The notes under the pieces: model-generated
Databases searched by the model: none
What the model saw: only the letters and a program-made list of their open reading frames with translations
What the model was told of the DNA's origin: nothing
Origin: Marsupella aquatica
Taxonomy: Eukaryota; Plantae; Marchantiophyta
Assembly: GCA_973895155.1 (NCBI GenBank)
Contig: OZ316891.1
Coordinates: 29,003,611 to 29,067,610, forward strand
Length of the DNA: 64,000 bases
Direction of reading: 5' to 3'
Translations under genes and position numbers: made by a program
In this document: piece by piece, positions 1 to 62,928 of the stretch
Layout: the number at the start of each line of letters is the position of its first letter
Position numbering within the stretch: position 1 is the stretch's first letter

Positions 1-1
1 G

Positions 2-571
2 GGTATAGATTTCATAGGTCCCATCACTTTGGTGACCGAGTCTAGAAGGAACTGATACATCCTTCTTGCAACTGATTATGCTACTAAGTGGGTAGAGGCC
101 AGATTAACAAGCAAGGATAATGCTCTCACAGTAGCAAGGTTCATGTATTTATCAATAGATTTTTACCAGATTTGGGCCACCTCTAGAATTGGTTTGTGAT
201 GGGGGACTCACTTCTTGAATGAGGTAGTGGAGGAGCTCACTAATCACTACTTGATTAAGCATACTTAGGAAGACTACTCCCTATCAACCCAAGGCAAAGG
301 ATTAACTGAGAGGGCTAATGACATCATTGGCAAGATCTTGAACAAAACTGTGGCGACACAAAAGACTGATTGGGATGACAAATTATACTTAGCTGTGTAC
401 TCCTACAATCTTGCTTTCAAGACCACAACAGGCCATAGTCCTTTCTACCTAGTTTTTGGATAGTACTCACTTGTACCTGTTGAGTTTGAAGTGCCTACTT
501 TAAGGGTGATTGTGGAGGAGAGAATGGAGGCCTCCTAGAGTTTGATGGAGAGAGCTTACCAGCTAGAGGCG
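2..571 (+). pseudogene. Gypsy LTR-retrotransposon integrase, 5' part (rve core), decayed
   Basis: Translates across stops and frameshifts to GIDFIGP...YILLATDYATKWVEA...FTRFGPPLELVCDG...GLTERAN...DWDDKL...YNLAFKTTTGHSPFYLVFG...ERAYQLEA. It stops at the insertion junction. Confidence 0.92.
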
Positions 572-644
572 CCAACTACATATGCAAACTTGCCAATATT
601 GTCAATACATGGTACATTTACAATGCACTTGACATTGTACGTTT

Positions 645-1362
645 TCAAGGGATTTTGTCGCCAAGTGTGTCGTTTTGATACCGTGAAAGATTGCATCCCA
701 AAATTGGACAAACAGGAAGATTTGCATACTCCTTTCTGTACAAGACACCCCCTCTTGGGCAAGCATATATGGTCTCCAAAGTCAGCCCTATTGATGAGAG
801 AAATTTCTTGGCTTCTCTCACACCTTGGGGCAAAGTATTTGGTTGTGGCAATAGCTTCCAAAGTAACTCAAACAATGCATTTGTGTGAACATCCGAGGAA
901 TTGAACATCCCTTGCAAATTTGACACCAATAAAGTGGCAGCCATCCTGCACAACAAGTTTACCCATGCATGAAGACAACTTAACTATGAACACAATCACG
1001 GGCTGCCAAGATAGGACGAAGGTGTGGTGTGCTTACCGTGATGACTCTGATCCCTCAAACAACGGAGTTCTTGCTTCTTTCTCAAGTTTGTTCCAATCGG
1101 GGTTGACATTGTCTGAGCCATCATGTGGACCAAAATGGTTGTCTACCAAGTGGGCAAATGCATCTTCCTCCAAAATTGGGTTTTCATCTTCCACATTTTC
1201 ATCCCCAGAAATCTGCTCATGGTGAAAAGGGGATCCATCCGTGTCACAATAGGATGATGTATACTCAGACGGATCTGAATCCTCCTCATTGTGCCTTTTG
1301 TAAAGTGCACGGACAGGAGTCATCATTGAAGTATGAGGCGTGGGAGTCATGGTGGAGTTCTG
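645..1362 (-). pseudogene. TNP2/TnpD-like CACTA transposase, N-terminal exons (1362-1037, 945-645), truncated before the catalytic core
   Basis: KLEKEARTPLFEGSESSR / MAATLL...ELLWKLLPQPNTLP...EAKKFLSSIGL...IYACPRGGVLYRKEYANLPVCP...SRY match the En/Spm TNP2 N-terminus. The GT-AG intron 1036-946 keeps the frame. Confidence 0.88.
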
Positions 1363-1474
1363 CTACATACATGACATTAAGTGAACATTAGCACAACATA
1401 ACATGGTCATAAGTGCAAAGAAATGCATGAGGTGCAAACTGGTATGTACTGAGGTATTTTGTACAAATTGTGAG

Positions 1475-2742
1475 TCAATGCCAATCGTAATCCACAAAAC
1501 TCTCATCTCCAGACCGAATCGTGCGAGTTGCATGCATGATAACATATCGTGTCACTCTACATGGTAGGCGAGGGTGTACCTATCGCACATACTCAACCCA
1601 CTCCGTATTGGGGCGATACCCACAATGACACGATCTAGTGATGCTATTGATGTACCCAGCCAGGTTCCCAGTCCTAGGCGGGAATCCATCAATACCATAG
1701 TGACTAAAGGTAGGGCACTATCGTGTCAAGATGCGCCAAGCAGCAGATGAGTACCGTGGCCCATAAACAGGAGGACAACCCTCTCGTGAGCCCTTTGGTA
1801 CTATGATGTCGGATAGGGCAAACAAGCCTAACCCAACCTCAAGACCAAGGAGAGAGGGAAGAACGACCCATGGCTGGTCCCAAACAAAGAATGGCTCTCC
1901 AACTTGGAATGCTCCACAGTCAGGATACCCAAAACTAGTGGGGAAGGAGTCCTTCACGACTTCAAGAGCTCTACCATGGAGCTCCTTGGCAGTCCTCAAA
2001 ACTGAAGGATCGTCTCAAACACGGTTCACCCATGCATCCATGCGAGGTAGCCTCTTCATACGTGGACGGGTGGGAACACGCACATCTAACTATAGAGGAT
2101 GCCTCTAATGTCTACACACACTATCAAAGTGTCTATCTATGGCTAACAATGCCTCTATGGCTGATGGGTGAACAATAGATGTCATAGCCGCACGTGCCAT
2201 TCGCCTCATGTCCTCCAAACTTGTAACCTCTAAAAAACAGGACGCCTCTATTAAATGCAAACATGCAATCATTAGTGGTGAGAATTTTTGTTATAGCAAG
2301 CAGGAGGAGACAATAGTATAGAGGCATACATGTTGTCACTAATAATTGCAAACATTACCTACTGTGGAGGGGGTACATATCGACCATGGATCCCACAATG
2401 GCTCAAGATAGTAGACTGATCCTGGTCCACCACTCCCTTGCACCGTCTGCATGGGCAAGGGGTCTTTCGCAGTGGAACATATGAATCCATAGCAGCCATA
2501 GTAGCAATCTCCACACAAGTCGACCAAGGTAAAGAACCAGATGATGTGGATGAAGATTGATGTCGATGATGATGACAGTGATGTCTCGATACATGATGAT
2601 GGTGTCGTCTCCGATCCCAATGAATTGGCGAATCACTACGGTCGTCATCACAATCTTGACTCCTGCTCCGATGTCTATATCGATGTCAAGATCTATCACG
2701 AGACCTCCACCTCCCGTCCCCATCTGAATCTGAGTCAGACAT
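1475..2742 (-). pseudogene. Transposon-borne SET-domain protein gene (exon 1 2742-2359; SET exon 2227-1475), inactivated by point stops
   Basis: One frame gives VLPSLLGLEVGLGLFALSDII...YGP (SET motif I), YGIDGFPPRTGNLAGYINS...RPNTEW (motif III-like) and VIMHATRTIRSGDESFVDYDWH* (motif IV). Exon 1 reads MSDSDSDG...CPCRRCKG...HCGIHG. All internal stops are TAG/TGA, each one C>T change from CAG/CGA. Confidence 0.8.
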
Positions 2743-3147
2743 GTCCCTCGGCATGCCTGGAAATCCAGGCAAAGTAAAAACCATTACCCTAAACTTGCCA
2801 CAAACCCTAAACCCAAGACTCAACTATGTTAACGTCGTACAAAACAAAGTAAATAGAATTAACAACCTTCCAAACTATGTCATACGTTGCTCCGACAATG
2901 TTACTTGTGTATTCCCAATAGACGTAAAGATTTGAATACGTCGTATGGAAAGACGCAATTAGCGCATGAACGTCGTTCAAAATGATGTTAATTAGTTAAA
3001 TGACATGAGCCCAAGGCTTCAAGCTTTAGGGTGGGAACGGGGACCAAGGGAAGGGAAGGAGGGGAATGGAAGGGAGATGCCCCATTGTAAACCACCACAT
3101 TTGAAACATTCACATTCAGGTTTTGCATGGAATAGTGAGCAACAACA

Positions 3148-5490
3148 ATGGTAGGCGTTCCTTTCTCACTGAACTTTGATGGAGAGAAAGTTAAGAATGG
3201 AGATGCAAAAGAGATTGAGAAGGTGCGCACAACAATGGAATCAATGAACCCAATGATAGTATCTTTCACACATAGCTGGAAGTTCATGGGATTACCGGAT
3301 GGAAGCAAGGAGTCAAAGTTTATTGCGTACCTAGAGCGTTTGGAGTGCGAGGTCTTGTTGGAGGAGGATGTGGGACCAGTTCTTGTTGCTCATGGATACT
3401 CTACAGATCTTCCAGGACCTTCGGCTCCTCCTCCTCCAGACTTAGGACCTTGGGACGATGTTATTGCTGGCATTTATGACACCAAGGTCCCCCTACAGCC
3501 CATGCCAGTCCGAAGTCAGGTTCATGTAGTGGACAGATTGAGAGGACGGCGATGAGAATGAACTCCTTTGATTAGTTTGTCTTCAGAGAGAGATGAGCAA
3601 AGAAGAAGGAAGGGGAAGGAAAGACATAGAAGTGATAGAAGGAGCAATGGAAGGAGTGAGAGAAGACAAGAAAGAAGGCGAGATCACACCACTGAGAGTG
3701 AGAGGAGGAGCATACGACACTCACCACGAGAACTTCACAGCAGGGGTCAAAAGGAGCACGCATCACATCCTCCATTGCCAACAATCAAGCTGTCAGTGTT
3801 TGATGCGGTTCCAGAGGTCCTTGATGAGAAAGGCCTAACAAACCGCATGAAGTTGGTCCTTGGCCAGCACTGTCCCAACTAGACCATTTGCTCGGGGGGT
3901 TAACTTAGTGTATATTTTGGGGTATCACGTGTGATCCTATCCTAATATAAACACACCTATTTTATAATGGGAATATTCTAAAAATGTTCTCTATTTTCAA
4001 TACTAATGACCTATTTTACTTTATAAAAGGTATATATTAGAGAATATTCTACAAATATAGGTTTATAATATCTTCTTTTGCTTCCTACGCTTTTTAAAAA
4101 TTTAGCTAATTTATATGAAAAATACCTATTTTGGATCGCACGTGGTTCCTAAGATTGTTGATAGTCAACCCCCCGAGACCATTTGGAGGGACTTGCAAAA
4201 GGACAATCAGAGGTTGCAGCTCATTATCAATGATGTGCAGGCCAGATTCAAGAATGGCCGAGAGATAAACTACTTGCACCTCAAGTCAAAGATCATCTCC
4301 CACTTGGCCGATTGTCACTTTAGGTGGAAAGAGAAGGTACGGGACCTCCAAGACCGGATCACAAAACAGTACAACCAACCAGAAGGGATGGTCGAGGCTG
4401 ACTTCCAAATTATAGTGAAGGAGCTCACGACAGCACCTCACACACCAACGGGACGCCGTGCATGAATGGGGGATGTTGCCACTCAAAAGCGAATGTCGCA
4501 ATCCAGGAAAGTGGTCACCAACTACTGGGGACAAGGCGGGTGGAGGGGGTTTCTTGCCAAATATGTAAGTGTGCTTGCCTCGGCTTATTCCCGATTTAAG
4601 GTCGGTTTTCAGTGTTAACATCATAGCCGCCGCATGTTTGTACGTCTCTCTAGATGTTGTAATATTAGGGTTTGCCATTTCATGTCGTTCAGAATGACAT
4701 TTGTTGAGGTTAACATCACTTTGATGGCGTTAATGCCATTGAAAAATTGTATAGATCAGGGAGACGACATCTTAGGAGATGTAATGTGTTAGGCGACGTA
4801 ATGAACGTCCATTTTGACAACATAAAGTAACTTCTAAACATCATACGGAACGACATTTTTGATAATGTGCAAAAATTGAAGTATGGTCATGATGCCGAGC
4901 CCACACAGCAGGAGAGACTATTTTCAAAGAGATATGGACCTCACGCGTTATGGCTACGATTAGACATGACAGGCAAGGGGGAGGAGGTGAGCATGAAGGA
5001 CAAAACCTCATACCTCATTGGTTAAGACATCCATAGCCTCATGGTTGCATGCAGGTCATTTATTCATGCGTGAACTTGTGTTGTAGGTTGACTGGAGTGC
5101 TCCGATAGGTTGCATTTGTCATCCTATTTCTGAGAATGATGAGAATGATGACACGGACTTAGCCGATGAGGAGCGTCCCACTAGGGAGGCATTTTGGGAG
5201 GCACAAGCGAGTGCTGATGGTGTAGTAGACAGGAGTCTTGAGGGTACTCAGGCCGCACTGACCTATTTCCCAAAGGATCTAGAGATAGGACTCCGAGGGG
5301 AGACCGGCAACGGCAGTCAGGAGGAGGGGCTACCCAGGGTAAGAGAGATAGTGCATACTCGTAGGAGAGTAGGAGGACGCGACACTGTGTATCCAAGCCA
5401 GATGCCACTGAGGAAGATAGCAACCACCTAGTTTGGCATAGGTCATCACCATCTAGTAGGGATGCGGGGCATCGTCATCGGAGTGCTTGG
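3148..5490 (+). pseudogene. TnpA/Ptta-like second gene of the CACTA element, multi-exon, decayed
   Basis: ORFs 3148-3555 and 3568-3882 share a frame, and 4186-4465 continues it once the MITE is removed. The frame runs on to KRMSQSRKVVTNYWGQGGWRGFLAKY|gtaagt, resembling the Ptta/En/Spm GxGGY motif. Further exon-like blocks lie at about 4875-4986 and 5088-5490. The 3' end is approximate. Confidence 0.65.
3891..4177. mobile_element. 287-bp MITE with 8-bp TSD (hAT- or Mutator-type)
   Basis: TIRs CTCGGGGGGTTAAC / GTCAACCCCCCGAG (13/14), with an inner inverted CACGTGYGATCC. TSD ACCATTTG at 3883-3890 and 4178-4185. AT-rich interior. Confidence 0.9.
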
Positions 5491-6152
5491 TAGGATAGTG
5501 CTTTGTTAGAATAGTGCTAGTTAGGATAGTGCTCCATAGGCCACAATTGTAAATACTTTTTTGTCATCTTAATCACGATTCATTTTGTGGGTGTATACAC
5601 TATGTTATATTCCTGACACCCACAATACATACATGTCTGATGAAATAGTAAACCCAACCACCAATTGGCAGCAAAAAAATAAAATAATTACACTCAGACG
5701 TCGTGCCTCGACCAGAACTTATTCTCATACTAGAGGACGTAAACACGATAATGTCGTCCACCGTACGGCACAATCCACGTACCAAAGGACTTTCTTAAAC
5801 TAACGTCTTCCAGTGATTGGTTCTTTACCTTAACCACCACGACGTTACATCATATTGAATGACTCATGCCACGACGTTTGTTACCAAAATAAGTACATTT
5901 GACAACACCTGTTGCGTCCCCCTGTCATTCACAAATATATGCTTCAAGGCCGACGCTACGTCATTTTACGTCCTCTTGTACGTGCTTGGAAACTATCCTT
6001 GCATGTCACGATGTATAGGAACGTTGTAATGGGAGCCGTAAATAAGATACCCTGATTTGCGTCGGTGGGTACAACGTACACAGACAATGTAATAACCCGT
6101 ATGAAATGACGTGGGAGACAACGTTAAAAGCTTAAAGATGTAGTTGTGGGCG

Positions 6153-6457
6153 TTGGAGGAAATCAGAGAAGAGGAAAGCCAACAAGTAAACCGAAAGCAA
6201 GCTCAAGCAAAGAGACATCATGACAAGAAGTTAAGGAAGCCGATCGACATCCTTAATTATTGGCTGGCCAGTTGGTACTACTCTATGACAATCGGTATGC
6301 TCACTTTCCAAGAAAGTTGCATACTTGATGGTTGGGTCCTTATGTTGTTCATAAGGTTTATGCAAATGGGTCCATTCAACTTGCTACTTTTGAAGGAGAA
6401 GTGTTCTCTACTCGAGTGTACCATGATAGGTTGAAGCGATACTATAATCAGGAATGA
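6153..6457 (+). pseudogene. Gypsy integrase C-terminal part (GPY/F region)
   Basis: LEEIREEESQQVNRKQAQAKRHHDKKLR, then after a frameshift GQLVLLYDNR...KLHT*WLGPYVVHKVYANGSIQL...RVYHDRLKRYYNQE*. Confidence 0.88.
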
Positions 6458-9327: not shown

Positions 9328-11339
9328 TGTAGTATTGCACTAAGGACATAAATCAGCATTTAATGTCCAAAACTCGGTATTCGATCCCATGGAAGAACAA
9401 GAAAGGAATAATTTTCTATCGTTTAACACTTATGAATGACTAAGGTCACAAAAAATACAGGTTTGAGCCTTTTACTATGATTGCTCAGCAAGGCATAGAT
9501 TTGAATGTTTGCTTAACATTGTAAATGCAATTAATAAAATGGAAACAAATAACAAAACACAATGAAATCTTGAGGTATGATGAGGGAGTCTGGAAAACAC
9601 CAAGGTAACTTCTCATCAATACTTTATTTGATGTGATTTGGGTGATATATCCGTAAGAACATTTTTGGAATGGATTACTGTACTAGGATGATTACTAAAA
9701 TGCCGTCAACACGTCTCAACTTTTCCTTCCAAAGGTACTCAGAAGAAACTAGTAATCAATCTCTTCGATATCCAGTCGGTACTCTGAGTCACGAATAATA
9801 AACACCATCATGATCAAATTGAAGTCACAGGTAATTGGTGAGTAACAATCTTTGCATCCCATGCACAAGCAATGTCACGCCAAAAATTATGCATCAAGAA
9901 CTCAAGAAGATGGGTTGTCACCACTTAAGGAATCTATTCCCTCATACTTCTGAGATTCAACTTCATACAAGTAATTTTACTTCAATGATCTAAACTCTCA
10001 ATCATTTAGACCAAGGAAGGGAGAAGAATTCCTTTGTATTTGCAAGCTTCATACCATACGAAAACACACCGAAGCTTTGCAAAGGTGATTACAGTACTGT
10101 AGCACATGCCACAGGCACTACTTTATTTCTTCACACTTGAAAATGACACAAATTCTACTTCATATAGGCTAGCAGGAACCCAAGGAGACTGAGATACTTA
10201 AAGGACATGCCCTTTCATATCTAAAGGGTCTTGAATAAACTTAATGACGGTCATCCTTGAAAAGTGAATGGACACTGCTGAAAGTGTCGAAAATGCAGGG
10301 GACGCTTCTCAAAGCATCGAGGTTTGAGCGGACGCTTTGCAAAGCGTCGTGTTTGCGCTAAAACTAATAAACAGTGATCTTAATCTAATTTTAACTTCTA
10401 AACTAAAAGTCGGAATGAGTTGAAACTTTTCTAGGGTACTCTACTACATATAATCTCTATGCTGGCAAAGTTTCAGACTTTTCTGAGATCTCTAAGTGTG
10501 TCAAATAAATCGGTAAAAGTGGCGCGGTGTTATAAAAGTGCGAAAACTGAAATTTTTTCTAAGTGTCGGGAACATAGTGGACGCTTCAGAAAGCGTCCAA
10601 ACCTACAAAGGACTTTTGTGGACGCTTTAGAAAGCGTCGGCTGAATTTCGAGGTTTGGTCGCAGCGTCCATCTTCTGGGCTCCGGGCGGGACGCTTCAGT
10701 GGGCGTCACAGTGTCGAGGTCACCTTCGGGGTAGCAGACGCTTCTGTGGGCGTCGCTCCTCATGTGGATTGCAGAGCGTCGGAGTACAACTGGTTGGGTG
10801 GTGGACGCTTCAGAAAGCGTCGTGGTCTTTGGGTGGACGCTTCTCAAAGCGTCGGCGAAGTCGCGGCTATGCGAAAAACAGCACAACTAAATTAATTCTA
10901 ACTTTCAAACCACATGTCAGTTTGAGATGAAACTTGTAGGGATGATTCTACTACGCAACTACTAATGCCTGAAAAAGTATGAGACTTTTCTGACCATGAT
11001 AGCTATTTAACTAAAATAGCAGAGATCGGCTGATTGTGATAATTGTATATAGAGCTCATTCTTGTTGAAAAAGTGTTTTGGAGCCGGTTCTTGAATCTTC
11101 TAGTCTGCATTGTTTCTCCAATGATGTCCAGTCTTCTTTCTTGGTAGCATGTAAAGAGCAAGGATTTATATTGGCGATCCTTGTCCAATAGAGGCAATAG
11201 CCTCCGATGAAGCATAACATTAGGTAAAGTGTTCGGTTGATCTAAATTGCTACAAAAGGTAACTAGATTGTACCTTGAGTTAGAAAAAGTTTAAAATTTA
11301 TTAAATTTCCATCATTTCTAACTAATGTACAGCATTATA
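9328..11339. mobile_element. About 2-kb solo LTR with 5-bp TSD
   Basis: TCTAG occurs at 9323-9327 and 11340-11344. Ends are TGTAGT...ATTATA (the terminal CA probably decayed to TA). The insertion splits one copy of a 51-bp tandem repeat whose intact twin is at 11379-11429. No coding remnants. Confidence 0.8.
10271..10853. repeat. Nine dispersed copies of an 18-bp palindrome GACGCTT-N4-AAGCGTC inside the solo LTR
   Basis: Copies start at 10271, 10301, 10331 (perfect GACGCTTTGCAAAGCGTC), 10580, 10621, 10690, 10737, 10804 and 10836; several are degenerate. Confidence 0.85.
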
Positions 11340-14367: not shown

Positions 14368-17300
14368 ATGGGGCGCGGGAGGCAGAGCAAAGGCGGACCA
14401 CGGACTGCTGCTCATCGACCCGCTGACTGGTTAGTTGTTTTCACCTTAGGCTCGCTGGAAAGCTCAGAAAACATCGGAGACACATCTGTAGAGGCTGTCT
14501 CTCGAAACTCGTCAAATTGAATGGGAGCTCTCTTTGCAAAATGCAGGGACTCGGATTGGAACATTCAAAGCCTTCCATCAGGTGTTCTAGTGACAGGTAA
14601 GATTTCAGCTGGTTACAATTTCTTTCGGCGTTGTGTTTCCATGCGTTCCATGCATTTTGACATCAGTAGACGATTGGGATGCTTTTGTATATATCCAATC
14701 TGGAATTTTGATGTCCTTTTGTAGAAGAAACTCATCGGGGATGATGACGCCCGTGGACAGGATACCTAGTTTGCATAGATGCAGATGCAGTGGCATTAAC
14801 CGAAGTTTATTCCACGTCCTTGCAGATTCCAATGAGCCTGGTAAAGGAAAGAAGCTGCCAATAAGTCTGGCTATGTGGGTACGATGAATGAACCTGTAGA
14901 AATTGTAGTCTCTGAATGAGGACGCCTTTGTTTGGTTCAAGGAGGAGGCCCTCTATCTGTCTCTTAAGTGAAGCTAGCTTCGCTCGCATGAGGGAGCTTA
15001 AAAAAATTCTTATTTTGAGTAGTACTTGATGCCTTCTGTGAGCCGTGGCCAAATCTTTGATTAGCGGCTCAGTGTACTCTCTCAACACTTTTTAAAGACC
15101 TTCAGTTTGGTAGGGAGGTTTCCGATGTTTGATTATCGGTCGGATCGGTCATCAAAGTTGTATCTCTGTTCCAACTTAATAAACTGTGCTGGAAGATCAG
15201 CCCAGGATCTTTGATGTAGGGGGGCTGCATATTGACTACTCTTCACCTTAGTAATAATCATTCGATTCAATTTTTGTAGCAACGACAAAGATGATTGAGA
15301 TTTCGGTTGTACTGTCTGTTTTGCAGGATTTTGGTCAATGCGATGCCAAACGGTGTACTGGACGGAAGCTTTCACGCCTAGGTTACTTGCGGGTATGTTC
15401 TGCTCTACAGCGCTCTCATCCAGACTCCAGATGTAGGATTGACACTACAAGACCAACGCAAGTTCTAAAGCGTTGCATTCTGTTCTTTCTTATGCAGGAA
15501 TTGCGAGTGCAACAGCACTTTCCAGGTGTTGTGCTCAGGTGAGCTTAATTATGCATGGCATATGTTGAAAGGAATTTCTTTTGTTCATAGAAAGTTTCAC
15601 TCTCGGAATCTACTGTAGTGGTTCTTCTAACCCCTTGTTTCCCTATCACACTCCATGGGGATGGCTGGAGACAACATAGTAGTAGCGGCTATAGTTTTCA
15701 AATCGTTGCTACGTTTGTTGCCTCCTGCTTTATTGCTATTATAATTTTTCTGATCTCACTATTCGGAATCTCACTAATAATCGTGAGATTGTGTTATAAC
15801 AATGAGGTGGACACCGTTTCTTTAGTCCATTTATGTTTAGACGCGGATCTGCCATGGGGAGGACGCAACAATTTCCTGTGCTGGGATAACCACTGAAGGG
15901 ATTGTCGTCTTGCTTAGTACATTCTTGTGATTTGACGTTCTTTCTATTGTTCATGTTAATGCAACTGAGACCTCTTACTGTCTGGTGCAGTCCTGTGGGT
16001 GGGAAATGTGTTTCAAAGGAGGACCGAGAGTTGATGAGAGTGAAAGGATTGGCAGTCGTAGATTGCTCATGGAGTAAGCTAACTGCTGTACCGTTCGCAC
16101 AGCTACGTTGCGGTGCCCCTCGCTTATGTACCGCTCTCTCCCAGAACGTTTATTTAGCCATTTGTTGTTCTTTTTATTTGTTACAATTTGGTGAGTTTTC
16201 CTGTTTATGTTGCTAGTACTGCTGTTGATAAGCCTCACAGGCTTTCATGTTGGCTTTAATCAATTCTACTGAATAATTCTGTAAAATGTCACATTAAAAA
16301 GGTGACCATTGTGAGGATGTGCTCATTTGGTGTAAAATGTCAGGGTACCCTTCAGACGTATCTCATCTCCAAGACATATTTTATTATTTTCTGTGTCCTG
16401 ATACTGTCTAAGCTGCCAGAGGGACTGTTGGTGGATGTTCTAAGCCACTGGTGTTTTATTATTTAACAGTTACAATTGCTCCAACCCGTTTGAATAGTTC
16501 CTCTCCACAGGGTAAAGCTTACATTGGCCATCTTGAGGACAGAGGAGTGTTACTGTCGCTGACAACCTTTCTTGGTTTAACGCATAATTTTATGGGAGTC
16601 TATCTCTGGAATGTACAAGCAGATTCCTACATACCCAATTTGTGAAACTTGGAAGGTATAGAAGACTGCTACATCCAATGTATTGCACTCACAAGGATTT
16701 TCCTGGATGATGTTTTGGTGGTATGCAGTGCCTTGGTTAGTGGCAGCAAATCCGGTCAATTATGGGCGTCCTTGCAAACTTTCGTGTGTGGAGGCTCTAG
16801 TGGCAGCACTTTTCATCTGGTGCTCCCTCTCTCTGTTCTGTTTGGCGCTACTTTCAACGTTTTCTCATATTGGCAACTTTCACTGACCACAATTTGCAAT
16901 TGTGCATCATGTGTTGAAGCAACAAAGCTCGATGGTCACTGGTTCTGTCCTTGTTGAACCCATCTTGATACCCAACTTGGTTCCTTCTCGTGGGTATCCT
17001 TCGACAGAATTGCTTGAAATAGAATCGTTTGGAGTGGGAGCCGTTCTTCCTGTCAGGATTTAAATTACCTTTCTGAATTAGTTGAGGCGACTCCAACGAC
17101 GGCACTCCTGTGTGTCCCCTCTTGATGATTTAGAAATTCCGCAAACCGATTGCAGTTTTCGTCATGGTTTGCTCTCGGGATTGTGCAATTATCTTGTAGT
17201 CCTGCCAGAGCGTCTGTCCGTCAACAAACTATGCATGCGCAGATGGGTTTGTGTTTCTTAGATCGTGTTGCAGATGTAGCTCCAGATTGTAGCAGATCGT

Positions 17301-41291: not shown

Positions 41292-44200
41292 ATGGAGTCA
41301 AAGAGTTTGCGAGATGGGTGGGATCGGTGGGCTTGTCTCGCAGCAGCCATGATCATGGAGGTAAGCTGGTCTGGTTTGCACTCTTTGATTGAGATTGGTC
41401 ATTTCTCGATGTCTGATCATTCAATTGGGTGTTGGGTGATCCTGGACGAGCTGTGTGGACATTGGGAATTCAGCACTTGCTTCCTTCAAAATTGATCATT
41501 CAATTGGGTGTTGAGTAATCCTGGACGAGCTGTCTGGACATTGGGCTTTCTTTCTGAAAAAGTGTTAGTGTAATGATGACTTAAGGAAACACATCTGAGA
41601 TGTGAATCATCCGGACTGAACTGTATCTTTGAGCGTCTGACTTTCTATCCATGCAACTCCGCTTAACTCTGAGCAATATTAAACCAGGGGTGTGTAAATT
41701 CTTTCTGGATTGCAATGGTTTCTCCCACACTTGTTGGAGGATGCAGCTTAACAAGTGAAACTGTGACAGGCATGCGGAGGTTTGGGCTACACATTTGCAG
41801 TTTACAGTCAGCACTTGAAGGAAAGACTGGAATATGATCAAGAAGACCTGGACGGTATTGGCGCTGCCAAGGACTTCGGTTATTCTCTCGGAATAGTGGG
41901 GGGAATTTTTTATAACTTCATTCCTCCGTGGATGACCGTTGGTATCGGGTCCATTCTCCACATTACGGGTTACTTCATGGTAAACTTCTCCATCTCAAAC
42001 TTTTGGACGAACTATTAGTTTTTGCAATTCTCTGTCCATATCTTTCCATCTGGATGACCTTAGGTTGGATCATGGTAGGAAAGGTCGGAATTTTGCGCAA
42101 GACACTACGTTTTTCTGTCGCGGCTGCCATTGCTGCTTAAGCGATTGGATCTTGCTCCATGTCACACATTCTCCAAATGATGTGACAATTTTCAAATCAG
42201 GATGTAGGCATTTGATCTGCTAGATTGTCGAGATTTATGGGGTGGATGGAGCCGTCCCACACATTTAGAAGCTACGTTGTTGAATTAGCCCTTACCAGGG
42301 CCTTGATTAGAACTGTGTCATTAATTAATGTGTTTTCCAGTGTCAACTAAAATTGGTCTTGTCTTCAGGTTTACTTGACATCAGCAGGGAAGATTGAACC
42401 ACCGTTTTTTTTGGTACGAGAGTTACCTCTCCGTTTGTCTTGCAATCCTGTAGATGATTGATGAGAAATAAATAGCTTCAGTCATCCTTATTGTCATGGT
42501 TGTGTTGGTTATTTGAGCTTGGCTTGTGAAGGTAGTTCAGCCGGAGAGATGCAGTAGATCCAGTGAAAAGAATGAAGTTTAGATCTTCGACGCACTAATG
42601 CATTATCTCTTGACACGAGACTCTGAAATGCCTGCGTAGTTCGTACAAGGATCTGCTGGCTTTACTCTAATCTTCTCCCTTGTTCTGAATGAGGGCAACA
42701 GATGTGCGGATTCATTGCTATGGGTGTTGGAGGTGATAGCTGGATTGATACAGCTGCTATTACGACAAGGTATTCCATGCACGGTGGAAACTCTTCTTGT
42801 CATGCTCGATTGACCGTCCTGGTTTTAAGCATGGCTATTCTAGCAGTTGGTGTCAGTGTAATTCAATCCTTTGGTCAATAAGATTCTCACTGTCATAGCA
42901 CTCCTCTACAACCTAATCTTTGCATCCAGTGTACAGAATTTTTCGGATTATCGAGGAACTGCATTAGGCGTGTTGAAAGCTCAAGTTGGTATATCAGGGG
43001 CAATTTTTGTGACGGTACGTAGGTCATATATTTCTTTTGCGTCTCTGTGCTTATTGTTACATGGTTGATACTGTTACAGCTGGTGACTGACTTCTCCATG
43101 ATTCGCTAATGCTCTTGTTGCTTGAAATGGATACCTTCGTTTTTAGATATAAATTGAACCTCATACTGTTGATTATCCCCTCTTGTGGAGCGATCATGTC
43201 TCTGTTTGTCCTTTTTACTCCGAATAATGTGTGTGGCCTGCAGCTTTACAAGGCATTTTTGAAACCCAACGTCGATGGATACGTCCTCTTGGTAGCATTG
43301 GCGCCTGCACTCATAAGCTTTGCTCTAGCTTTTATCATTCGGCCTTTCCCTTCCAACGAGTCTGATTCCAGTGATCGTGGGAGATTTGAAATGGCATATG
43401 TAAGTCATGCTTGAGCTTGAGTAGCATTGTAGACAATTATCGAAATTGCAATCAAGAATACTCGCGCGAGTGGAGACATTGATACGCTAAAAGCTTTTGG
43501 TGCGGCTTGCTGGGGAGTGTGGAAGGAGTGTGGAGTGTGGATTGTGATTGATTCCAAAATTGTGTTTGATGACAGGGGGCTACGATTTTCCTTGGTCTGT
43601 ATCTTCTATTTTCGATAATTTTCCAGGTATAAACTTGATTGAGCAGTGACTTTTGTTCCGACCTGGCGAATTTGTTTGGGACAGAAATACCGACAGCATG
43701 TTCAGTTTGTGTGTGTGGACATTCACTCTTGGACGGCCGAGAGTTCGAATTTTACAACCTCGTCCCTGGCTTCTGTTCATAGGATATTATCTAACAGCGA
43801 CTTTTGTGTATTCTGTATTCTTGTTGGAATACAGGCATGGCGGGATTTAGCAAGGTCGTGGCTAATTTTCTTTGCTGTGACCATGGTGACACAGTTCTTT
43901 GTAACTTCTTTACTTTTGGTAAGTACGATACGTTTTATACTGAACACTGACGTTATTGCACACTGTCGGTGTCTTCTGTCACAAGAAATTTCCAAATGCT
44001 GTTGGCTTTCTTTCATTGCCTTCTTTCATTGCTAAATATCTGTTATGTTGTACTTTTGCAGGTTTTTTATCGACCTGCTAAACGCATTTTTGACTCTCTG
44101 GTGGGTGTCCCTTTGGAACAAAATAATGTAGAAGAGATGGTGCTAAAACCCAACTTGAAGCACAAGCATTCAGATATCATCTCAAGAGACGATAATTCAG

Positions 44201-46465
44201 AAGAAGATAGCCAACCATTAAAAGGTGAAGCACAGGACAGTCAAGAAGACTCTCAGGATCATCATGCGGTATCCTTACCTTCTCAGATGTTGGGGCAGAA
44301 GCAGGGTTATCATATTCTTGAACCACAAGGAGAAGAGGCATCGAAGGGCATGCAATTGTTAGCACAGCAAGAGGTTCCTCTGGCGGAGTCAGCTGGGCCT
44401 GAGAGCTATACCTTATGGCAATGCGTCCATAGCGTCAACTTCTGGTAAATCATAATATTTTGTCCCGGGTGGAGGTACATGGTATCGTAGGGTTGCATAG
44501 TAACTTGTGGCCACTATGTCCCTTGAGCTGGAGCATGGAAGTAGCAAAATTGCCACCTTACCAAGATAGCTTGCTAGTAGTTCTATTTGATTATGAGAGA
44601 CCTAATGCCGTGTGTTATTTACTATCATTGGTGGGGCCTCAATATTAGTGACTAGACTTGTCATCTTCTCTCCAACTGGCGATCGTATGTCGTAACTACT
44701 AGTTTTTCTTTTCGTTTCTTTCCTGACCAAATGTTCTCATCTGAACTGGACATCGCTTGTTAACCCAAGTATTGCTGCGGCAGGATAATATGCTTGGTGG
44801 CTATAACTGGCCCTGGAACTGGACTGGCTGTAATCAATAACTTTGGGCAGGTCAGGTTTTGTCCAAGCCCGACACAACAAAAAACACGCAACAATTACAA
44901 TCAACCTCTTCTGTTAGTCCGGTATTCATTGCATAGTAATCCTAGTCGTGCTATGGTTCTGGTCGCAAGTATTTTCAACTCAAATGAGTTACATGTCTGC
45001 AGATTGGGAGGTCATTGAAGTCGGAGAGTGTGGAGCTGTATGTGGGTCTGATAAGCGTTTCCAGCTGCTTTGGCCGTCTCGCTGGAGGGTAAGGTGCTTC
45101 CTGATCCTTTTGGTGATCGTTATCTTTGCAACAGAGAAGATAGCTGATTCACCCGTACCATCAGTACTCCCACCTTCATGGGCTTTGTACAGGTCCTGCG
45201 GAATGACCTGACTGTCATTAGAACGTGCTCTTTTTATTTTAGATTTTAAATTTTGCTGAGCTTTAGTGGTAATTAGCCCAACAAGAGACATGTCGTTCCA
45301 TTGTACAGGTATGGATCGGATGCGTTGCTGAAACGGACATCATATCCGAGGCCTTTGTGTTTGTCTTTATCACACCTGATAATGACGTTGGGTTGCTTGA
45401 CACTCGCTGCTGGATGTGAGTTTTCTCTCGAACCTCTGGTTCTAATAGTTCTCTTCTTCTCACTGCTTGGTTTGCGATTTGTTAGAAATAGAAATTAATT
45501 TGTGGGGCGTTACTTGGGAACTTTGTTCGGTTCGAGTCCAGTTCTCCCTTTCTGTTCCGTGCAGCCACGATGTGTCCTACTCATTGCCGTCGTTCTGCCG
45601 TAACATTCCGGTTATGTGGGAACATTGTTTTCGTAATGCTCCGACACACACTTCTATTGTGAACTTGGCTAATGGAGAGCTGCCTTGGGTTCATATGGTC
45701 TGAAACAGACGTCCCTTTGCTTTATGTGGGTTCCGCCCTTGTGGGTGGCTCTTATGGATCTTTTTGGGCACTTACACCAGCAATTTTAGCCGAAATTTTT
45801 GGCCTCCAGAATTTTCCTGCACTCTACAAATTGATAGGGTAAGCAAGATTTGTCTCCCTCTCCCTTTCTGGCATTTTCTGCATTGTGTCCCTGTCCCTTC
45901 GGAGCCCTTATCATTTAATACAGTTTAATTCAAATCCATTCAATTCAATGCTTAGCTGACAAGCTCAAAATTCGAAGCAAAAACAAAATCCACACATTCT
46001 AAGGTTTTTTAATCTCTTGAAAGGTTGGAACATTGAATTTTTCTTTGTCCACGCGTTGTTTTCCTGGACAGTTTCTTCAACTCCGAGAGTGTCCAATCCC
46101 CTCATAACTAGGGTTTTTAGAATGAAAGTGGAATTGGAGTAATGAAGAAGGTAATTCTCTTGTGTCTGCACAAATTTCACAATTTATACTTACCATTTCA
46201 TGTTCTGATCAAGTTCAGGGCATTTGGTCCAGTGGGAGCATTCGTTCTTTCGGCCAAAGTTGTAGGACAATTCTATGACGATGAAGCGGAAGCTTATCAT
46301 GTGGTCGGTGACGCTGGTGAACAGACCTGCCTAGGAAGAAAATGCTTTGAATTTTCCATGTTGATTTTGGCCGTCGTGTGTATGCTTGGGGCATCATTAG
46401 GGGCACTGTTGTCCATAAGAACTAGGCAAATATATGCACAGATGAAGTTGCAATCTAGACAATAG
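41292..46465 (+). CDS. Nodulin-like/NFD4-like major facilitator superfamily transporter; exons 41292-41360, 41770-41979, 42369-42413, 42702-42769, 42930-43014, 43244-43399, 43576-43626, 43835-43918, 44062-44444, 44784-44850, 45003-45088, 45309-45415, 45709-45838, 46219-46465
   Basis: RWACLAAAMIMEACGGLGYTFAVYS..LK..L.YDQ, AKDFG, NFSDYRGTALGVLKAQVGISGAIF, NFW, GTGLAVINNFGQIG, FGRLAGG, AEIFGLQNF..LY, CLGRKCF. All introns are GT-AG and in phase. An in-frame ATG at 41280 is an alternative start. Confidence 0.93.
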
Positions 46466-50337: not shown

Positions 50338-52913
50338 AGTGGAAAATCACGCTCGTGCGAATGTCGTCCTTTCACCACCAAAAAACGCGGTCGCTTCTGA
50401 AGGAGTTCAATGGTCAGCGCGTGAGCATGAATTCTTGCTCTCTGCCTGACACTCATGATCACTTCGGTCAACTCACTGTACTGCATTGGGAACAGAAGCC
50501 AGCCCAAGATGTGAGCGTGTGATGTGCTTCCGATCCGCCAGATGTTTCTCTTGCTGGACAGTGAAGCCATTCGAATCGCTGGTCCTATGAGCTGAGACAG
50601 ATTGCTCGATTCCTGTAGCCCACGATCCCAAAATCTGGGACACTTTCAGAAATGTGGTTCCAAATAGCCATTTCATCTCAGAGCCGCAATGTAGAGTCCG
50701 GTCACGTAGTCAGTGTGTTGGGGTGGGGGCATAGGTCGTGCTCAGGAAGTTGATCAATCACAAGTTCACACAACTCTGTCTGTCGCTGTTGTTTCATTCT
50801 TTACAGAGGGCCGAGAAATGGTACCAATTTGGTCGGAACAGTCGCCCCCACCACGCAAACCTGGGCTATTTGTCGTGTGCCTATCAGATGTAATGTGCCT
50901 CGAGAGGGAAGCCTTCCTCTTAGCCGTAATCTGGACATTATTGTGTAGATAGGCGCATGGGTGGCAGTGCATCTCGTGTTAGCGTTGTTTATAAGAGACT
51001 TGTCAGTCGCTCTGTTTCCACGGTTGATGCTTAAGAGAACCGGAAAGTTGGTGTGATTGCTCTGGAGAATTTGCCCAAAGAAAAGAATATCTGGACATTA
51101 TATGGGGTGTGTACAAGTATAAGAATCTGGCTGGAGGACCAAGCCAATCCTGAGGGGTAAGCTGGGCACAATTAGAGATTTGATACGGCTGTCTATGTGG
51201 TGTGAATCTTAGTTGTGGGTCGGGTTGGGGGAGGGACTAAATTAGAGGAGACCAGTTTGGGCGGTTGCCCCACGAACCCAACATAACATCTGGGCACTTC
51301 GTCGAGTGCTCTCACGTGCACTGCTGGGACAGCCAGGTGAAGAACTCCATCGAGAAAGTGTCTTGGGCTGTGTGTTGTGGCGTGGAGTTCAATGGGGAGT
51401 CATGGTTAGTTAAGGGAGCATTTACAGCTCTGCCTGCCACTGTTGATCCAGACTTTACAGAAAGGAAAAGGGGGATGTCAAGAAGCACTGTTCACTGATG
51501 CACTAATTCACCAAGTGCCGTCGATTGATTGATTGATGGGTTGGATTCAGTCCCACGAAAAAGGGCAGTAAAGGTTCTTTTCTTCTGGTTGAATACCCGA
51601 GCAGCCACGAAGAGTTCGTTGGCCAGACCCTCGGATTACAGCTAGGATGACTGCGTGCGTTGCTACTCACCGGATCCTGTTCATTCCTTCGTGAAAGCCT
51701 CTTTGCTCTGCATTCTGCATTCTGCATTGGGAACTGAAGAAGCAGGCTAATTGAATCCTTAAGCTAAGGCTTGGCGTTGTTGTTGTCCTTCGTGGCACTG
51801 GGGCACGGAGGCAGGCAGTAGGCAGAAAGGGGAAGCAATCTTCTGTCAGGTCCTGTACCGTCTCTGCGATCTGTTGTTACTTTCATTCTGATTCTCCTGA
51901 GGCGGCAGCCGCAGCGTAATGTCTCCACTACCGTCGGCCGTGGGCCCGAATCTCCCACGGCCAGCGAACCCCATGAAATGGCCTCATCTATTTGTGGGCC
52001 CGATTCCTCCCACGCCCTGCCTAGCAGCGCTGCTGTCATGACGTATTACGGCGACGGGTGAAACAACTGGACGGAGCTTCCGGTTCTCGCTCGCTGCCCC
52101 TGCCTTTCCCTTCCCCCACGGATGGAGAGCGGCTCCCCATCCTCCGCTTCTTCTCCTCATTCGTCTTCTCATCCTTCCCACCCCTTGTGGCGCAAGCGAA
52201 TGGGAAGGAAGGACATCTGAAAGGGACGAGCATTCTGCAGCTCTCCGATACACTCCCTCATTGTGAATTAAGGCCGCTGAATTGGTATAAGCTATCCCTC
52301 TCCACCAGTGTGCGTGTCGGCTTCATTTTGTTTCTTCATGACCGGGCGACCTTTGCCCACTGCACTCCCCTCCCACAAGAGTACGCCTTCCCTCCTTCCT
52401 ATTTCATTATTGTATTGTGTTCGGATATGCTGACAAATTACCAAGGGTTGGCTGGCTGCCTTTCTCTCCCTTGGCTCTCTGGCCGGCAGCAGCAATTCAT
52501 TTTACAATCGTTGAGTTGATTGTAACGGATTAGGTCAGAGTTTTCATTTCTTGAAATCAGCTTCCCTGGAGGTAGGTCTCTTGGTAGAGATTAGATTGTG
52601 AATCCATGATTTTATGTTCCCTCATAACTGCAATTGGGAGGGGAGTGGGAGCTTGACACCGAGTGAACCGCACAATCTGTTCGTCCGGGAGAAGAGAAGG
52701 CTGTTGGAGAGGGACAGAGAAAAGGAGGAATTCATTTTCAGTAGGAGACGAGGAAGGCTGTTACTGATGTGGAGAGAGAGCAAGAGTAATCTCTTCTACG
52801 AAGGCTAGTGGAGAGACAGAGAGAGATTCGTCCGTGTATGTGAATTCCGTGGGGGTTTAGGAAGGAAAGGCAGGATCAAGATTAGATGTGAGTCACATTC
52901 GAAGGTTGTGGCC

Positions 52914-53528
52914 ATGGGGGACGAGGATTATCGGATGAAGTTGCTGCTCATTGGAGACAGTGGAGTAGGGAAGAGCTGCCTGCTTCTCCGATTCTGCGAC
53001 AATTCGTTTGTCACCAGCTTCATCACGACAATAGGAATAGATTTTAAGGTGAAAACGATTGAGCTGGAAGGGAAGAGAATCCGGCTGCAGATCTGGGACA
53101 CGGCCGGCCAGGAGAGGTTCCGCACCATTACCACTGCCTACTACCGAGGAGCAATGGGAATTTTGCTGGTGTATGATATATCCGACCAAGGATCGTTTCT
53201 TAACGTTCGCAATTGGATCGGGAGCATTGCTGAATACGCATCAGAGAATGTGAATGTCATACTTGTGGGTAACAAGGCGGATGTAGACGGTGCCACCAGA
53301 AAGGTGTCCAAAGCGGACGGCCAAGCTCTGGCTGATGAGTTCAACATCAAGTTCTTCGAGACAAGTGCCAAAATCAATCTTAGGGTGACCGAGATTTTTG
53401 CCTCCATAGCTTTAGACATCAAGAAACGGTTAGAGGACACGAAGCCTATTAGATCTGACCCATATCCCGAAAAGAAACTTGAGCAATTGAAGCCGGCTGA
53501 GCAAACTTCATCCTGCTGTACTTCATGA
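52914..53528 (+). CDS. RABE1: Rab GTPase of the RabE1/Rab8 (Sec4) family, 204 aa, intronless CDS
   Basis: GDSGVGKS, effector [41 protein letters not shown] and C-terminal CCTS prenylation motif. The ATG is in GCCATGG context. Confidence 0.96.
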
Positions 53529-59652: not shown

Positions 59653-62565
59653 CTACTTGTCAGTCTGGGGCACTTTGGCTGATAATGCCGTTGACGCAGG
59701 TACCGTTTCTGGAATAAAATCTGCACCAAACAGAAAGATTAGTCACCATCTCTATTTTAGACAGCTTGGGCTCCGTCGGAGATGTTATAGGTGTTCGGTG
59801 GACGCTCTCCCAGCTGACGAAAATCGAAATTGGTGAGGATTAGCCTCGCACATTTATGAATATATTCAGATATCCCCCATAGCGGGTCCAGGGCTTTGCT
59901 CTCTGACTTTCCTCCCTGTTTTGCTTTCTTTTACTACTAGAGTATTTCTAAAGTACCACCTTAGATTTCGAACGATTCACTACAGGATAAGGGTGAAGAT
60001 TCCATTACTAGTTCATTCAGGCCAGGATAGTGGGCCAACAATAAACTAAACCCTAAACCACTACCTCAACATAAGCATATTTCACAGGTCGTTTAAGTAC
60101 TCATGGAAAATTCTCATCCAGAATCTATAATACTTTCCCTTAACTCATGGAGTAACAACACAAGGGTCAGATCCTGCAACTTTAAAACATTTATCTGCTC
60201 CTGACCCGTCGTCGATATCGTCAATCCGTGATGATTTATAAACTAGCCGAGTTCGATCATCTGTCTTGTTCTATTTCTCTTGGCGTTCTAGCCCTCGCCA
60301 TCTCAACTTGCAGATACTAAAGGTCATTCTCTTTGGATCATCATAGATATCATTGCTGTAAAAACCGTAGGACTCCGTTTTGCGTGCCCATGATTCACTA
60401 AAGATCTAAATCTCTTTCGCTTGGTCCCCCCCACCCCCAACACCGTAGTGTCTCAGCCTTTGATCCTTCTCATTATGTGACACCTGGTCAGTTGCAGCTA
60501 ATGATTTACTAATTCAACAAAATGCAACCATGTCCTTAACTCTCAATAGCTTTGTATGACAAGAGCACTCACCGGCTAGGAAGTCATATCTGTCAGTAGT
60601 ATTGACATGAGACGCTGCAAAGATCACAGAAAACGACCCAACATTCCATGAGAGTGCTATATAAATATGATGAGCGAATCATTTACTATATAAAAAATGA
60701 GGTACTGCACAGACATAAGCTAGAGTCAGAGTCTGTCCCTTGTTACAGGAAAACAAAGATTTTGACTTCAGCTGGGGAGTTGACAGATTAGGATGCTATT
60801 CGAACCCCAACCTACGATGGAATGACACGGGAGTAACGCCTCACCATGTATGACGCAATACCTGGAAATTTTGTTTTCATTACAAAAACAGGGGAACGAA
60901 CTTCTTCGGGGAAGAATCAACTAGACAGACTACTTTTTCCAAATATCAGTCGCGCGGAGAACAACCAAATGCCAGCAAATTGGCACCTCTTACCGAGATC
61001 TTTGTAGCACAAAACAATCCTCTCGTCTTCTGTCATCTTAACGAAGGCATCCTCCACAAATTTCTCCAGAAAAAGCTCCTACAAGAACGTGGTCATCGGT
61101 ATCAGACCCACAGCAATACTCATTCTCATTAGAAAGATCAACGCTTGGAGAAAATTTGATCACTTTGTTTCTCTTGTCTTACGTGATAGAACGAGAAGCT
61201 ACGACGGGATCATCTTTGTCAATATCGACCACTTTTACAACTAGTAGAAAGGTATCGTTCTGATTGCACTGCCAGATAACGGAAGAAGAATGTCAGAGTC
61301 AGTAACGTTTCGCCGCCTGGCATTCCATCCGCTCGAGGCCACACCTCGACGGAGCAGACGCCATCGAAGGAAAAGCCTCCGGCATAGCGACACGTGACGG
61401 ACAACTGCAATTTAATTTCATGTTACAGGAAGCAACTGCCAGAAAATATGATTTCACAGTTCATATGTGTGCCGACAAAGACCTTATCGAGTAGATAATG
61501 AGCAGTTGAGAGCAACAAGCTCGTCGACTTTCTCGGCCACAGCACCAAGCACCGAGAAAAACTCTCAATCCTGTCAGGAAATTCCTCATTCTCTCTTGCT
61601 CTTTCTCTGGTGCCACTGAAGTATCCGACTTCAGATTCCAATGGGGAGAAGTGAGGATAAGATTCTATTCAAAAGATGGCTTCAGCCTAGTATACAATGC
61701 ACGCCAATTGGGAATCTGAAAAATAGAAGAGGGCTGACGGGAACCCTGAGCGATGAAAGGAGAATTTTCTCATTCGGCATTCTGCAGTAGCAAAATGTGT
61801 CTCCTTCATACTGTTGGCAATTCAATTGCCCCGAAGCCAATGATTGAAGTATTCCACCCATTTGTGGCGCACACTTTTCGACCTCAAACATTGTCAGCTC
61901 GGATTGCACACACCTCGAGGGTCGTGCACTGAGCGAGTTCTCTCAGACCATTAGGGTTGCCAGAAGCACATTGCTCCACAGACTATCTCACCGGACATAT
62001 CAACCGCCCGGAAGAGAGGGTAGCCCAGAGAGGGGAAAGCAAGGTTAGCCAATTCCATCCAAATGTGGACCATCATTAAAAGGATTCTCAATCTTTCCCA
62101 CACAGCCGATAAGAACACGACTATCCACAGGGAAGAGGCACTCACTGCAGCTTTGGCGATGAGGAAACCGGCCTCCACGCCCACCTGTTGAACCTCCACC
62201 TCGCTCTTTACCAACCGCCGCACTCTCGAAATGGGGAACGCCAATGTCGTCAGCGCGGCGGACTTGGTCGGCTTCCTGCTGCCGCCATTTGCAACAGCAG
62301 CTGAGGACTTCCTCTTTTTCGTCGACCTAGCAGGCGAAGTGTGCCCATTCTCCACCTCTCTTTCCCCTTCGCCGTCCTCTTCATCCTCTTCCTCATTTCC
62401 CACCTCCTCGTCCTCCTCTTCTTGCTCCTCCGCCTCCTCCGCCGACTCCTCCTCCTCTTCCTCCTGCTCCTCTCCTTCGGACGACCTTTGCGCCTCCTCC
62501 TCCTCTTCTACTTCTTCTTCTTCCTCTCGTCTCCCGGATTCCGACTCAGAATCTGTGCCGCTCAT
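59653..62565 (-). CDS. DPB3-1: H2A-like histone-fold protein, DPB3-1/NF-YC10-like, with acidic N-terminus; exons 62565-62146, 61078-60994, 60614-60573, 59720-59653
   Basis: FPISRVRRLVKS...AGFLIAKAA|ELFLEKFVEDAF...YKDL|ASHV...RYDFLA|DFIPE. The exons total 615 nt and the GT-AG introns are in phase. The symbol is assigned by resemblance. Confidence 0.88.
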
Positions 62566-62928
62566 CCCGCCGTCTTCGTGGACCCGGTTGATGCACCTCC
62601 ACCACTGCCACTACTGAATTGTGCACAACACCAACAATCTCTCGACCTCAAGGGATTCGTGCCCCACTCCACTCCACCGATTCAGAGCACACAGCTTCGA
62701 CCTTCCACTTGGACGCCAATTGGGCTCATCCGCCACACCACCACTGCCGATGATACCGAATTGTTCACAACATCGACGTATGCAATTCGTCCCCTCTTCA
62801 CCAATAATTCAGAGCAGAGCTTCGCCCTTCGACTTGGACGCGAGGCGGAGGCTTTCTCATTGTCGTTCAGCTATGCTCAGCCGAGTGGCATTTGCGTTAC
62901 GAAATTCCTTTAGAGCTGTTGTCGACAG

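Follow-up and report, generated by a model that had tools for sequence, protein, structure and literature searches.

A SET-domain exon between the first exon and the transposase exons of an En/Spm-like element in the liverwort Marsupella aquatica, and its possible alternative splicing

The locus described here raises the question of whether one first exon can serve two different proteins. In the window analyzed (the whole stretch of 64,000 nucleotides from contig OZ316891.1 of Marsupella aquatica), an exon encoding a Cys/His motif is followed on the reverse strand by a SET-domain exon and then by exons of a TNP2-type transposase, and the original prediction was that the first exon could be spliced to either. 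We compared this arrangement with sister contigs from four runs and two organisms (organism B among them), in which contig depth gives no copy number, and with a distant relative, the 2195-bp contig Ga0066793_10058413 (hereafter L001). L001 was the sole relative among 96 pattern matches in metagenome contigs; none of the 8 matches in viral contigs or the 9 in prokaryote genomes was a related locus.

The host element and its decay

The exons lie within an element that interrupts a retrotransposon, with these surrounding features:

572..6148, reverse strand: En/Spm (CACTA)-like element of 5.6 kb, internally deleted
56-571 and 6150-6457, forward strand: decayed Gypsy integrase, split by the element
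2750..3000, no strand assigned: GACG/ACGT-rich stretch upstream of exon 1
3148..4620, forward strand: decayed reading frame head-to-head with exon 1, continuous across the MITE, the two ATGs about 400 bp apart
3891..4177, no strand assigned: MITE, a later insertion, with an 8-bp target duplication and G-rich terminal repeats
5087-5431, forward strand: further open frame in the same element

Imperfect inverted repeats with the core CAACTACAT mark the ends of the element, and the target duplication, as read from this one insertion, is GCG (569-571 and 6150-6152) or GGCG according to the choice of ends; En/Spm elements characteristically make 3-bp duplications. Because the integrase frame resumes at 6150, with GCG or GGCG flanking the element and the inverted repeats inside it, the element was inserted into a Gypsy retrotransposon. 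The opposite order, a Gypsy element inserted into the transposase, was rejected since the element sits within the Gypsy integrase. Pfam gave no integrase match for the left part (56-571). In one sister contig, position 569 is joined directly to the right flank, which represents the empty site. CACTA ends have been described as 5'-CAC..GTG-3' (CACTA in flowering plants), with target duplications of 2-5 bp in the wider clade, in the available text of PMC12730594; the right end here can be read as CAC.., not CACTA, and the left end is short by one or two bases.

Assignment to the En/Spm superfamily is most likely on the basis of the transposase, which is of the TNP2/TnpD type as judged from the region 640-945, 39-42% identical (E 2.6e-23 to 1.5e-17) to the PF02992-bearing proteins P0083, P0100, and P0122. 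The transposase ends at about 640, some 70 bp from the element end, because the element is internally deleted; the DDE core with its C(2)C and H(3-4)H motifs is deleted in the window copy, and the L001 contig stops short of this core. Differing contigs in the four runs cover 30 of 30 bins of positions 1-6000, so the element belongs to a repeat family.

The window copy is dead and unable to make either the SET protein or the transposase. Exon 1 contains two in-frame stops, a TGA at 2688 and a TAG at 2361 directly before the donor, and the SET exon carries a one-base loss near its start, stops at 2107, 2092, 2017, 1720, and 1582, and in-frame deletions relative to its homologues. All of the stops in the two exons are TAG or TGA and lie one C-to-T step from a sense codon, and at 4 of the 5 SET-exon stops the nearest intact homologue has Gln. 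Nearly all of the sister depth lacks the stop at 2688 (2686 differs). Immediately ahead of the donor, a sense codon stands in 2 of 3 contigs of each organism-B run and TAG in 3 of 3 X2 contigs, including X2 contig 5, which retains the TAG at 2361. No sister contig was intact among those compared. The exon layout originally described for the SET region is borne out in the window, but the five stops there and the two in exon 1 had been missed.

The upstream half of the element holds further candidate components. The stretch at 2750-3000 contains 5 ACGT per 250 bp versus 0.39 in the rest of the window, has a similar cluster upstream in L001, and could possibly serve as a promoter or as binding sites for an accessory protein. 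The MITE, which we take to be hAT-type by the 8-bp duplication rule, is skipped by sister contigs (3880-4176) and is high-copy, with many flanks in all four runs; from exon 1, sister contigs bridge only as far as 3079-3101. The divergent frame at 3148-4620, possibly TnpA-like from its motifs, has no Pfam, Atlas, PDB-sequence, or Foldseek match, and its predicted model is a three-helix fold with pLDDT 67. A truly TnpA-like identity would be notable, given that the available text of 10.64898/2026.08.24.746577 confines proteins of this type to flowering plants.

Several features elsewhere in the window are separate from the element. Positions 10268-10853 contain nine copies of a 21-nt palindromic unit and a duplicate spaced at 507 bp, possibly the end region of another DNA element. 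Host-like sequences include an uninterrupted Rab/Ras-family frame (52809-53525, forward), a PF04034 piece (15890-16213, forward), nodulin-like/NFD4 pieces (43091-46462, forward), and a 219-aa frame with a weak histone-fold match (61954-62610, reverse; E 0.0017).

The first exon and the SET acceptor

The exons and introns under study, all on the reverse strand, are as follows:

2359..2742, reverse strand: exon 1, 384 nt, 128 codons, with a low-complexity R/H/D/S tail and then the Cys/His motif
2398..2457, reverse strand: C-x-C-x2-C-K-x12-H motif, transposase-associated domain-like, a predicted zinc site
2248..2358, reverse strand: intron 1, 111 nt, 67% A+T, with donor 2358 and family acceptor 2248
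1475..2247, reverse strand: SET exon, terminal, ending in DYDWH-stop (1477-1475)
1363..1474, reverse strand: non-coding gap after the SET stop, 112 nt, 64% A+T
1037..1362, reverse strand: first TNP2 exon, an acidic linker with EEDAFA and TPLFEG motifs
946..1036, reverse strand: phase-2 intron GTAAG..GCAG, 54% A+T, assigned from sequence only
640..945, reverse strand: helical/Cys region from the N-terminal part of TNP2, truncated ahead of the PF02992 core

Exon 1 has the composition first claimed for it, with an ATG at 2742, the CPCRRC..H..HG motif, and a GTAATG donor at 2358 in phase 0. The second and third Cys, the Lys, and the His of the motif are invariant in 7 of 7 aligned sequences. It had been proposed that this motif represents the transposase-associated domain PF13963. 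A scan of the window exon (with X at stops) does give a match (E 0.0079, 16.8 bits; 18.6 bits for a trimmed piece), but these scores fall below the 27.7-bit cut-off, as do those of L001 (20.6 and 22.6 bits), with all window and L001 matches on profile positions of about 31-61. We therefore treat the motif as PF13963-like. Such a motif usually sits at the N-terminus of TnpD.

Phase-0 acceptors had been placed before 2227 and before 1362. AGs are present in phase at both points, but 2227 does not hold as the site used by the family. In the window copy the intron is free of AG for 91 nt and is closed by an AG at 2248, which is out of phase because the copy is one T short in the run 2232-2237; the AG at 2228, just before 2227, belongs to a GAG that follows an out-of-phase TAG by two bases. 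The sister comparison over intron 1 used 22 of 26 pieces, from runs not recorded as RNA; none of them had the intron spliced out, which bears neither way on splicing. It yielded one contig identical to the window and four differing sequences at the SET acceptor. Two of these have one extra T in the run 2232-2237, which puts the CAG at 2248 in phase 0; a third, the loose end of a contig, has a TAG at 2248 with the same 21-nt spacing and without an AG at 2228. In the fourth (X3 8 / X4 16) the AG at 2248 is lost and a T-rich TAG at 2228 is in phase 0, an apparent acceptor turnover in which the site has moved 21 nt downstream with phase 0 retained. A phase-0 YAG thus occurs at the SET acceptor in 4 of 4 differing sister sequences (three at 2248, one at 2228), even though two of the four are dead too because a base is lost a few codons past the acceptor. 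Judged from these alignments, the usual SET acceptor of the family is 2248/2247, and 2227 was rejected for this role since the sister contigs have 2248 as the usual phase-0 site.

The donor GT is retained in 5 of the 6 listed non-identical contigs, and the divergent loose end has an open codon and a GT at the equivalent position. We rejected a phase-2 donor at 2362, which is lost in all organism-B contigs. A phase-0 AG by itself is close to chance expectation, with any given phase found in 3-4 of every 8-11 AGs listed; the phase-0 acceptors carry weight because they are conserved in L001 and the sister contigs.

In L001, exon 1 starts at an ATG (322), is Ser-rich, and ends at a phase-0 donor (706); 32 codons separate the Cys motif from this donor, a spacing found in the window too. 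Its SET acceptor is a phase-0 CAG (850) after a 97-nt AG-free run, with an ATG as the first codon past the acceptor, and its SET exon has one internal stop and an end stop at 1692. The TNP2 acceptor is also a phase-0 CAG (1882). That CAG is not the first AG to follow the long AG-free run ahead of TNP2: a GAG at 1862 comes 20 nt earlier, is out of phase, and, lying 5 nt past a TTAAT, is probably too near a branch point to serve. In both the window element and L001, A+T makes up 64-72% of the presumed introns and 50-55% of the exons. The two share exon order and splice phases, with the SET exon between exon 1 and the TNP2 exons as first described. Conservation of the donor and acceptors was looked at in the sister contigs (of whose differences from the window the top 40 of 1307 were covered) and L001, the far acceptor being compared between the window and L001, and the sites proved to be conserved.

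The ATG at the L001 acceptor raises the alternative that exon 1 serves the transposase only and that SET is a nested gene in intron 1, translated from an ATG of its own that coincides with the acceptor or lies just past it. An ATG is found nearby in the window too, at 2209, and most contig ORFs start near this point, though gene callers must choose a Met. Against a nested gene, intron 1 is just 111-144 nt long, the phase-0 acceptor is retained even after it has shifted, and the relative P0008 has Gln and no Met at the acceptor point. Reading frames joining the Cys/His motif to SET, without a transposase, also exist in P0043 (an ORF in a 2141-bp Logan contig) and in the Riccia models P0048, P0055, and P0070. 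We consider the nested gene unlikely, and continue with exon 1 as the probable first exon of both products.

The SET exon and the transposase exons

The window SET exon is 62% identical to the intact protein P0001 (E 9e-94), and a search with it recovered 12 intact relatives among 524 candidates. A profile built from these relatives found 123 representatives at E<=0.001 with <50% mutual identity. The Pfam SET model PF00856 matches the window exon (X at stops) with E 0.029 and 15.2 bits, under the 22.4 cut-off, and 9 of 27 homologues score above it, including P0009 at 25.9 bits. Residues G134, G156, Y159, and Y247 are invariant in 13 of 13 aligned SET sequences; they fall in what we take to be the GxG, YxG, and C-terminal Tyr motifs of SET domains, patterns found in 74, 64, and 58 of the 123 representatives, many of which are fragments. 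In the Asn-His cofactor motif, Asn is retained and His is mostly replaced by Ser (54 of 62 matches are N-S), and N-H in SET motif III occurs in 0 of 123 representatives.

Structure comparisons also point to a SET fold. The predicted model of P0004 (pLDDT 58.8) has SET matches in Foldseek (E 3e-6, 117 at E<=0.001), and VIA comparisons with this model give Z 8.1-9.3, with EZH2, SETD8, vSET, ASH1L, MLL, and PR domains tied. On such a model the substrate class does not appear separable by sequence or fold. The nearest Atlas cluster is SET (0.97, Streptophyta), and a PDB sequence search with the SET profile gave no match. Named relatives in the SET family come from the liverworts Riccia and Calypogeia and, far off, from Ginkgo. 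P0068 (Calypogeia), P0117 (Ginkgo), and further neighbours are more distant members of the family with other Cys/His-rich N-termini.

One could regard the SET exon as a passively carried host-gene fragment of the Pack-CACTA type. CACTA elements capture gene pieces, and both the window copy and its sisters are decayed. However, the frames are intact in the 12 relatives and across the 123 representatives, SET occupies the same position beside TNP2 in L001 and the Riccia models, and the window and L001 SET sequences, 35% identical over 266 aa, are about two changes per site apart in a quick tree (built from the 47 of 130 rows that cover most of the SET domain). As read from these comparisons, the SET exon is under long-term coding constraint, in keeping with the original view of an integrated module, and the passive fragment is strongly disfavoured to the point of being hardly credible.

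The SET exon is normally terminal, since of 75 homologues that extend to the SET C-terminal motif, 69 stop no more than 30 residues beyond it. Nevertheless, the sequence continues from SET into TNP2 in six Riccia or Riccia-like proteins (P0056, P0077, P0083, P0100, P0113, and P0122; five of them are named Riccia models), and in P0083 the Cys/His motif is followed by part of SET and then by PF02992. These proteins, which account for 4 of the 6 homologues with long tails past the SET C-terminal motif, would fit a single motif-SET-transposase fusion made through a donor inside the SET exon. But they leave SET at five different points, 5 of 6 lose the C-terminal Tyr motif, and no phase-0 donor with >=6 of 9 consensus letters occurs in the last 600 SET coding bases of either the window or L001; the early stops of the 69 homologues likewise speak against a fusion. 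Because the Riccia models mix transcript-based and ab initio prediction (according to the accessible part of PMC11735767), we read them as evidence for gene order and not for fusion; they also fall outside the window's clade in the quick tree. A fusion is in our judgment highly improbable.

Downstream of the SET stop, tandem TAG/CAG acceptors, both in phase 0, precede 1362/1359 after a 76-nt AG-free run. Splicing from the donor at 2358 to the acceptor at 1362 would remove a SET-skipping intron of 996 nt, of which 1363-1474 is the 3' end. The first TNP2 exon is 48% identical to L001 over 23 aa and matches P0113 with E 7e-5.

The in-frame ATG at 1350, in a CCACC context, suggests another arrangement, in which a first gene consists of exon 1 and SET, and the transposase follows in tandem as a gene in its own right, beginning at this ATG. 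Two tandem genes are reported for some Arabidopsis En/Spm families in the available text of PMC13547354. In-frame ATGs in the window's first TNP2 exon lie at codons 5, 13, and 14 (1350 among them), and none is common to L001, where the only Met of the exon is residue 60, past the conserved EEDAFA; a transposase start at 1350, which would have spoken against a shared first exon, is thus not seen in the relative. Comparison of the window with L001 gives no conserved start for TnpD other than exon 1. Moreover, the SET stop and the TNP2 exon are separated by only 112 nt, ending in the phase-0 acceptors and their AG-free run, and a transposase starting at 1350 would lose the PF13963-like motif. A separate transposase gene therefore seems very unlikely. 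We found no protein with exon 1 joined directly to the TNP2 exon in searches that were weak (1 motif candidate and 84 TNP2-exon candidates).

A proposed splice choice and its relation to known systems

The reading that we favour, and think probable, is that one first exon is spliced to either of two acceptors to give a motif-plus-SET protein or a TnpD transposase. In an intact element, a single transcript would begin upstream of exon 1. Use of the near acceptor (2248) would yield a predicted zinc-motif and SET protein of ~390 residues, terminated by the stop of the SET exon. With the far acceptor (1362/1359), SET would be skipped and TnpD would be produced with the motif at its N-terminus.

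What the SET protein would do can be proposed more tentatively. It could be a SAM-dependent lysine methyltransferase that reaches copies of its own element through the shared N-terminus and marks chromatin or methylates proteins there, a suggestion to which we give somewhat less than even confidence. The motif is short; the enzyme would not read DNA itself but would be recruited by the transposase complex or by a DNA-binding accessory protein, and would lay down an activating histone mark or methylate a silencing or transposon protein. The fullest version is doubtful as a whole: a splice switch in bryophyte En/Spm elements between transposition and protection of the element itself, in which the zinc-motif exon is joined to the transposase or, alternatively, to a SET enzyme that is specific to the element, has a non-canonical cofactor motif, is brought to the element's copies by the shared N-terminus, and writes an activating mark there, the divergent TnpA-like gene perhaps supplying DNA binding.

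In maize En/Spm and in Arabidopsis EN/SPM3 and EN/SPM7, a single gene is alternatively spliced to give two proteins, TnpA and TnpD (available text of PMC13547354 and 10.64898/2026.08.24.746577). The Marsupella element resembles En/Spm in having a CACTA-type TNP2 transposase and, as far as can be deduced from its sequence, a second protein from the same transcription unit. It differs in that the alternative product would be a SET protein and not a helix-turn-helix TnpA, and in that SET, placed ahead of the TNP2 exons, would serve as an alternative last exon and have a coding exon in common with TnpD.

SET domains in DNA transposons are known from several other systems. One is PAG2 of red-algal Plavaka elements (EnSpm superfamily), a SET-domain protein with a proposed role in chromatin modulation (10.1101/2025.02.11.637652). 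PAG2 is described as an accessory gene of its own, fused to an N6-adenine methylase and carried by elements of 17-19 kb, and the available text describes no exon shared with the transposase. SET genes are also carried by HarbingerS and oomycete MuDR elements (available text of PMC12730594), and Helitron captures of SET are known (available text of 10.1101/2025.02.11.637652). These likewise reside in DNA transposons, but in other superfamilies and hosts, and as far as those texts describe them they are accessory genes, not transposase isoforms.

A possible parallel in function is offered by VANC of VANDAL elements and by TnpA, sequence-specific anti-silencing factors (PMC12730594; 10.64898/2026.08.24.746577, both in their available portions). 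They act on the chromatin of their own copies, as the SET protein may, but they are non-SET proteins of demonstrated activity, whereas the activity here is predicted only. No land-plant CACTA element in which a SET exon and TnpD have a coding exon in common was found in the literature searched, although Repbase, subscription journals, and bioRxiv supplements (for example the Bostrychia curated-element table) may hold some; the available portion of PMC11982613 contains nothing on a SET-bearing CACTA layout. DNA transposons that carry SET genes are known, as is the alternative splicing of En/Spm; what appears new, against the literature searched, is their combination.

The known plant transposon counter-defences, VANC and TnpA, are non-enzymatic or of undetermined mechanism, and the SET genes known from transposons, in oomycetes and algae, are accessory genes apart from the transposase. 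If the proposal is true, a land-plant transposon would methylate histones or other proteins on its own behalf, splicing would determine how much enzyme is made relative to transposase, and a SET enzyme would have been retained within a transposase gene across moss-like and liverwort lineages. The Riccia "SET domain-containing proteins" that are annotated as host proteins would then be transposon cargo.
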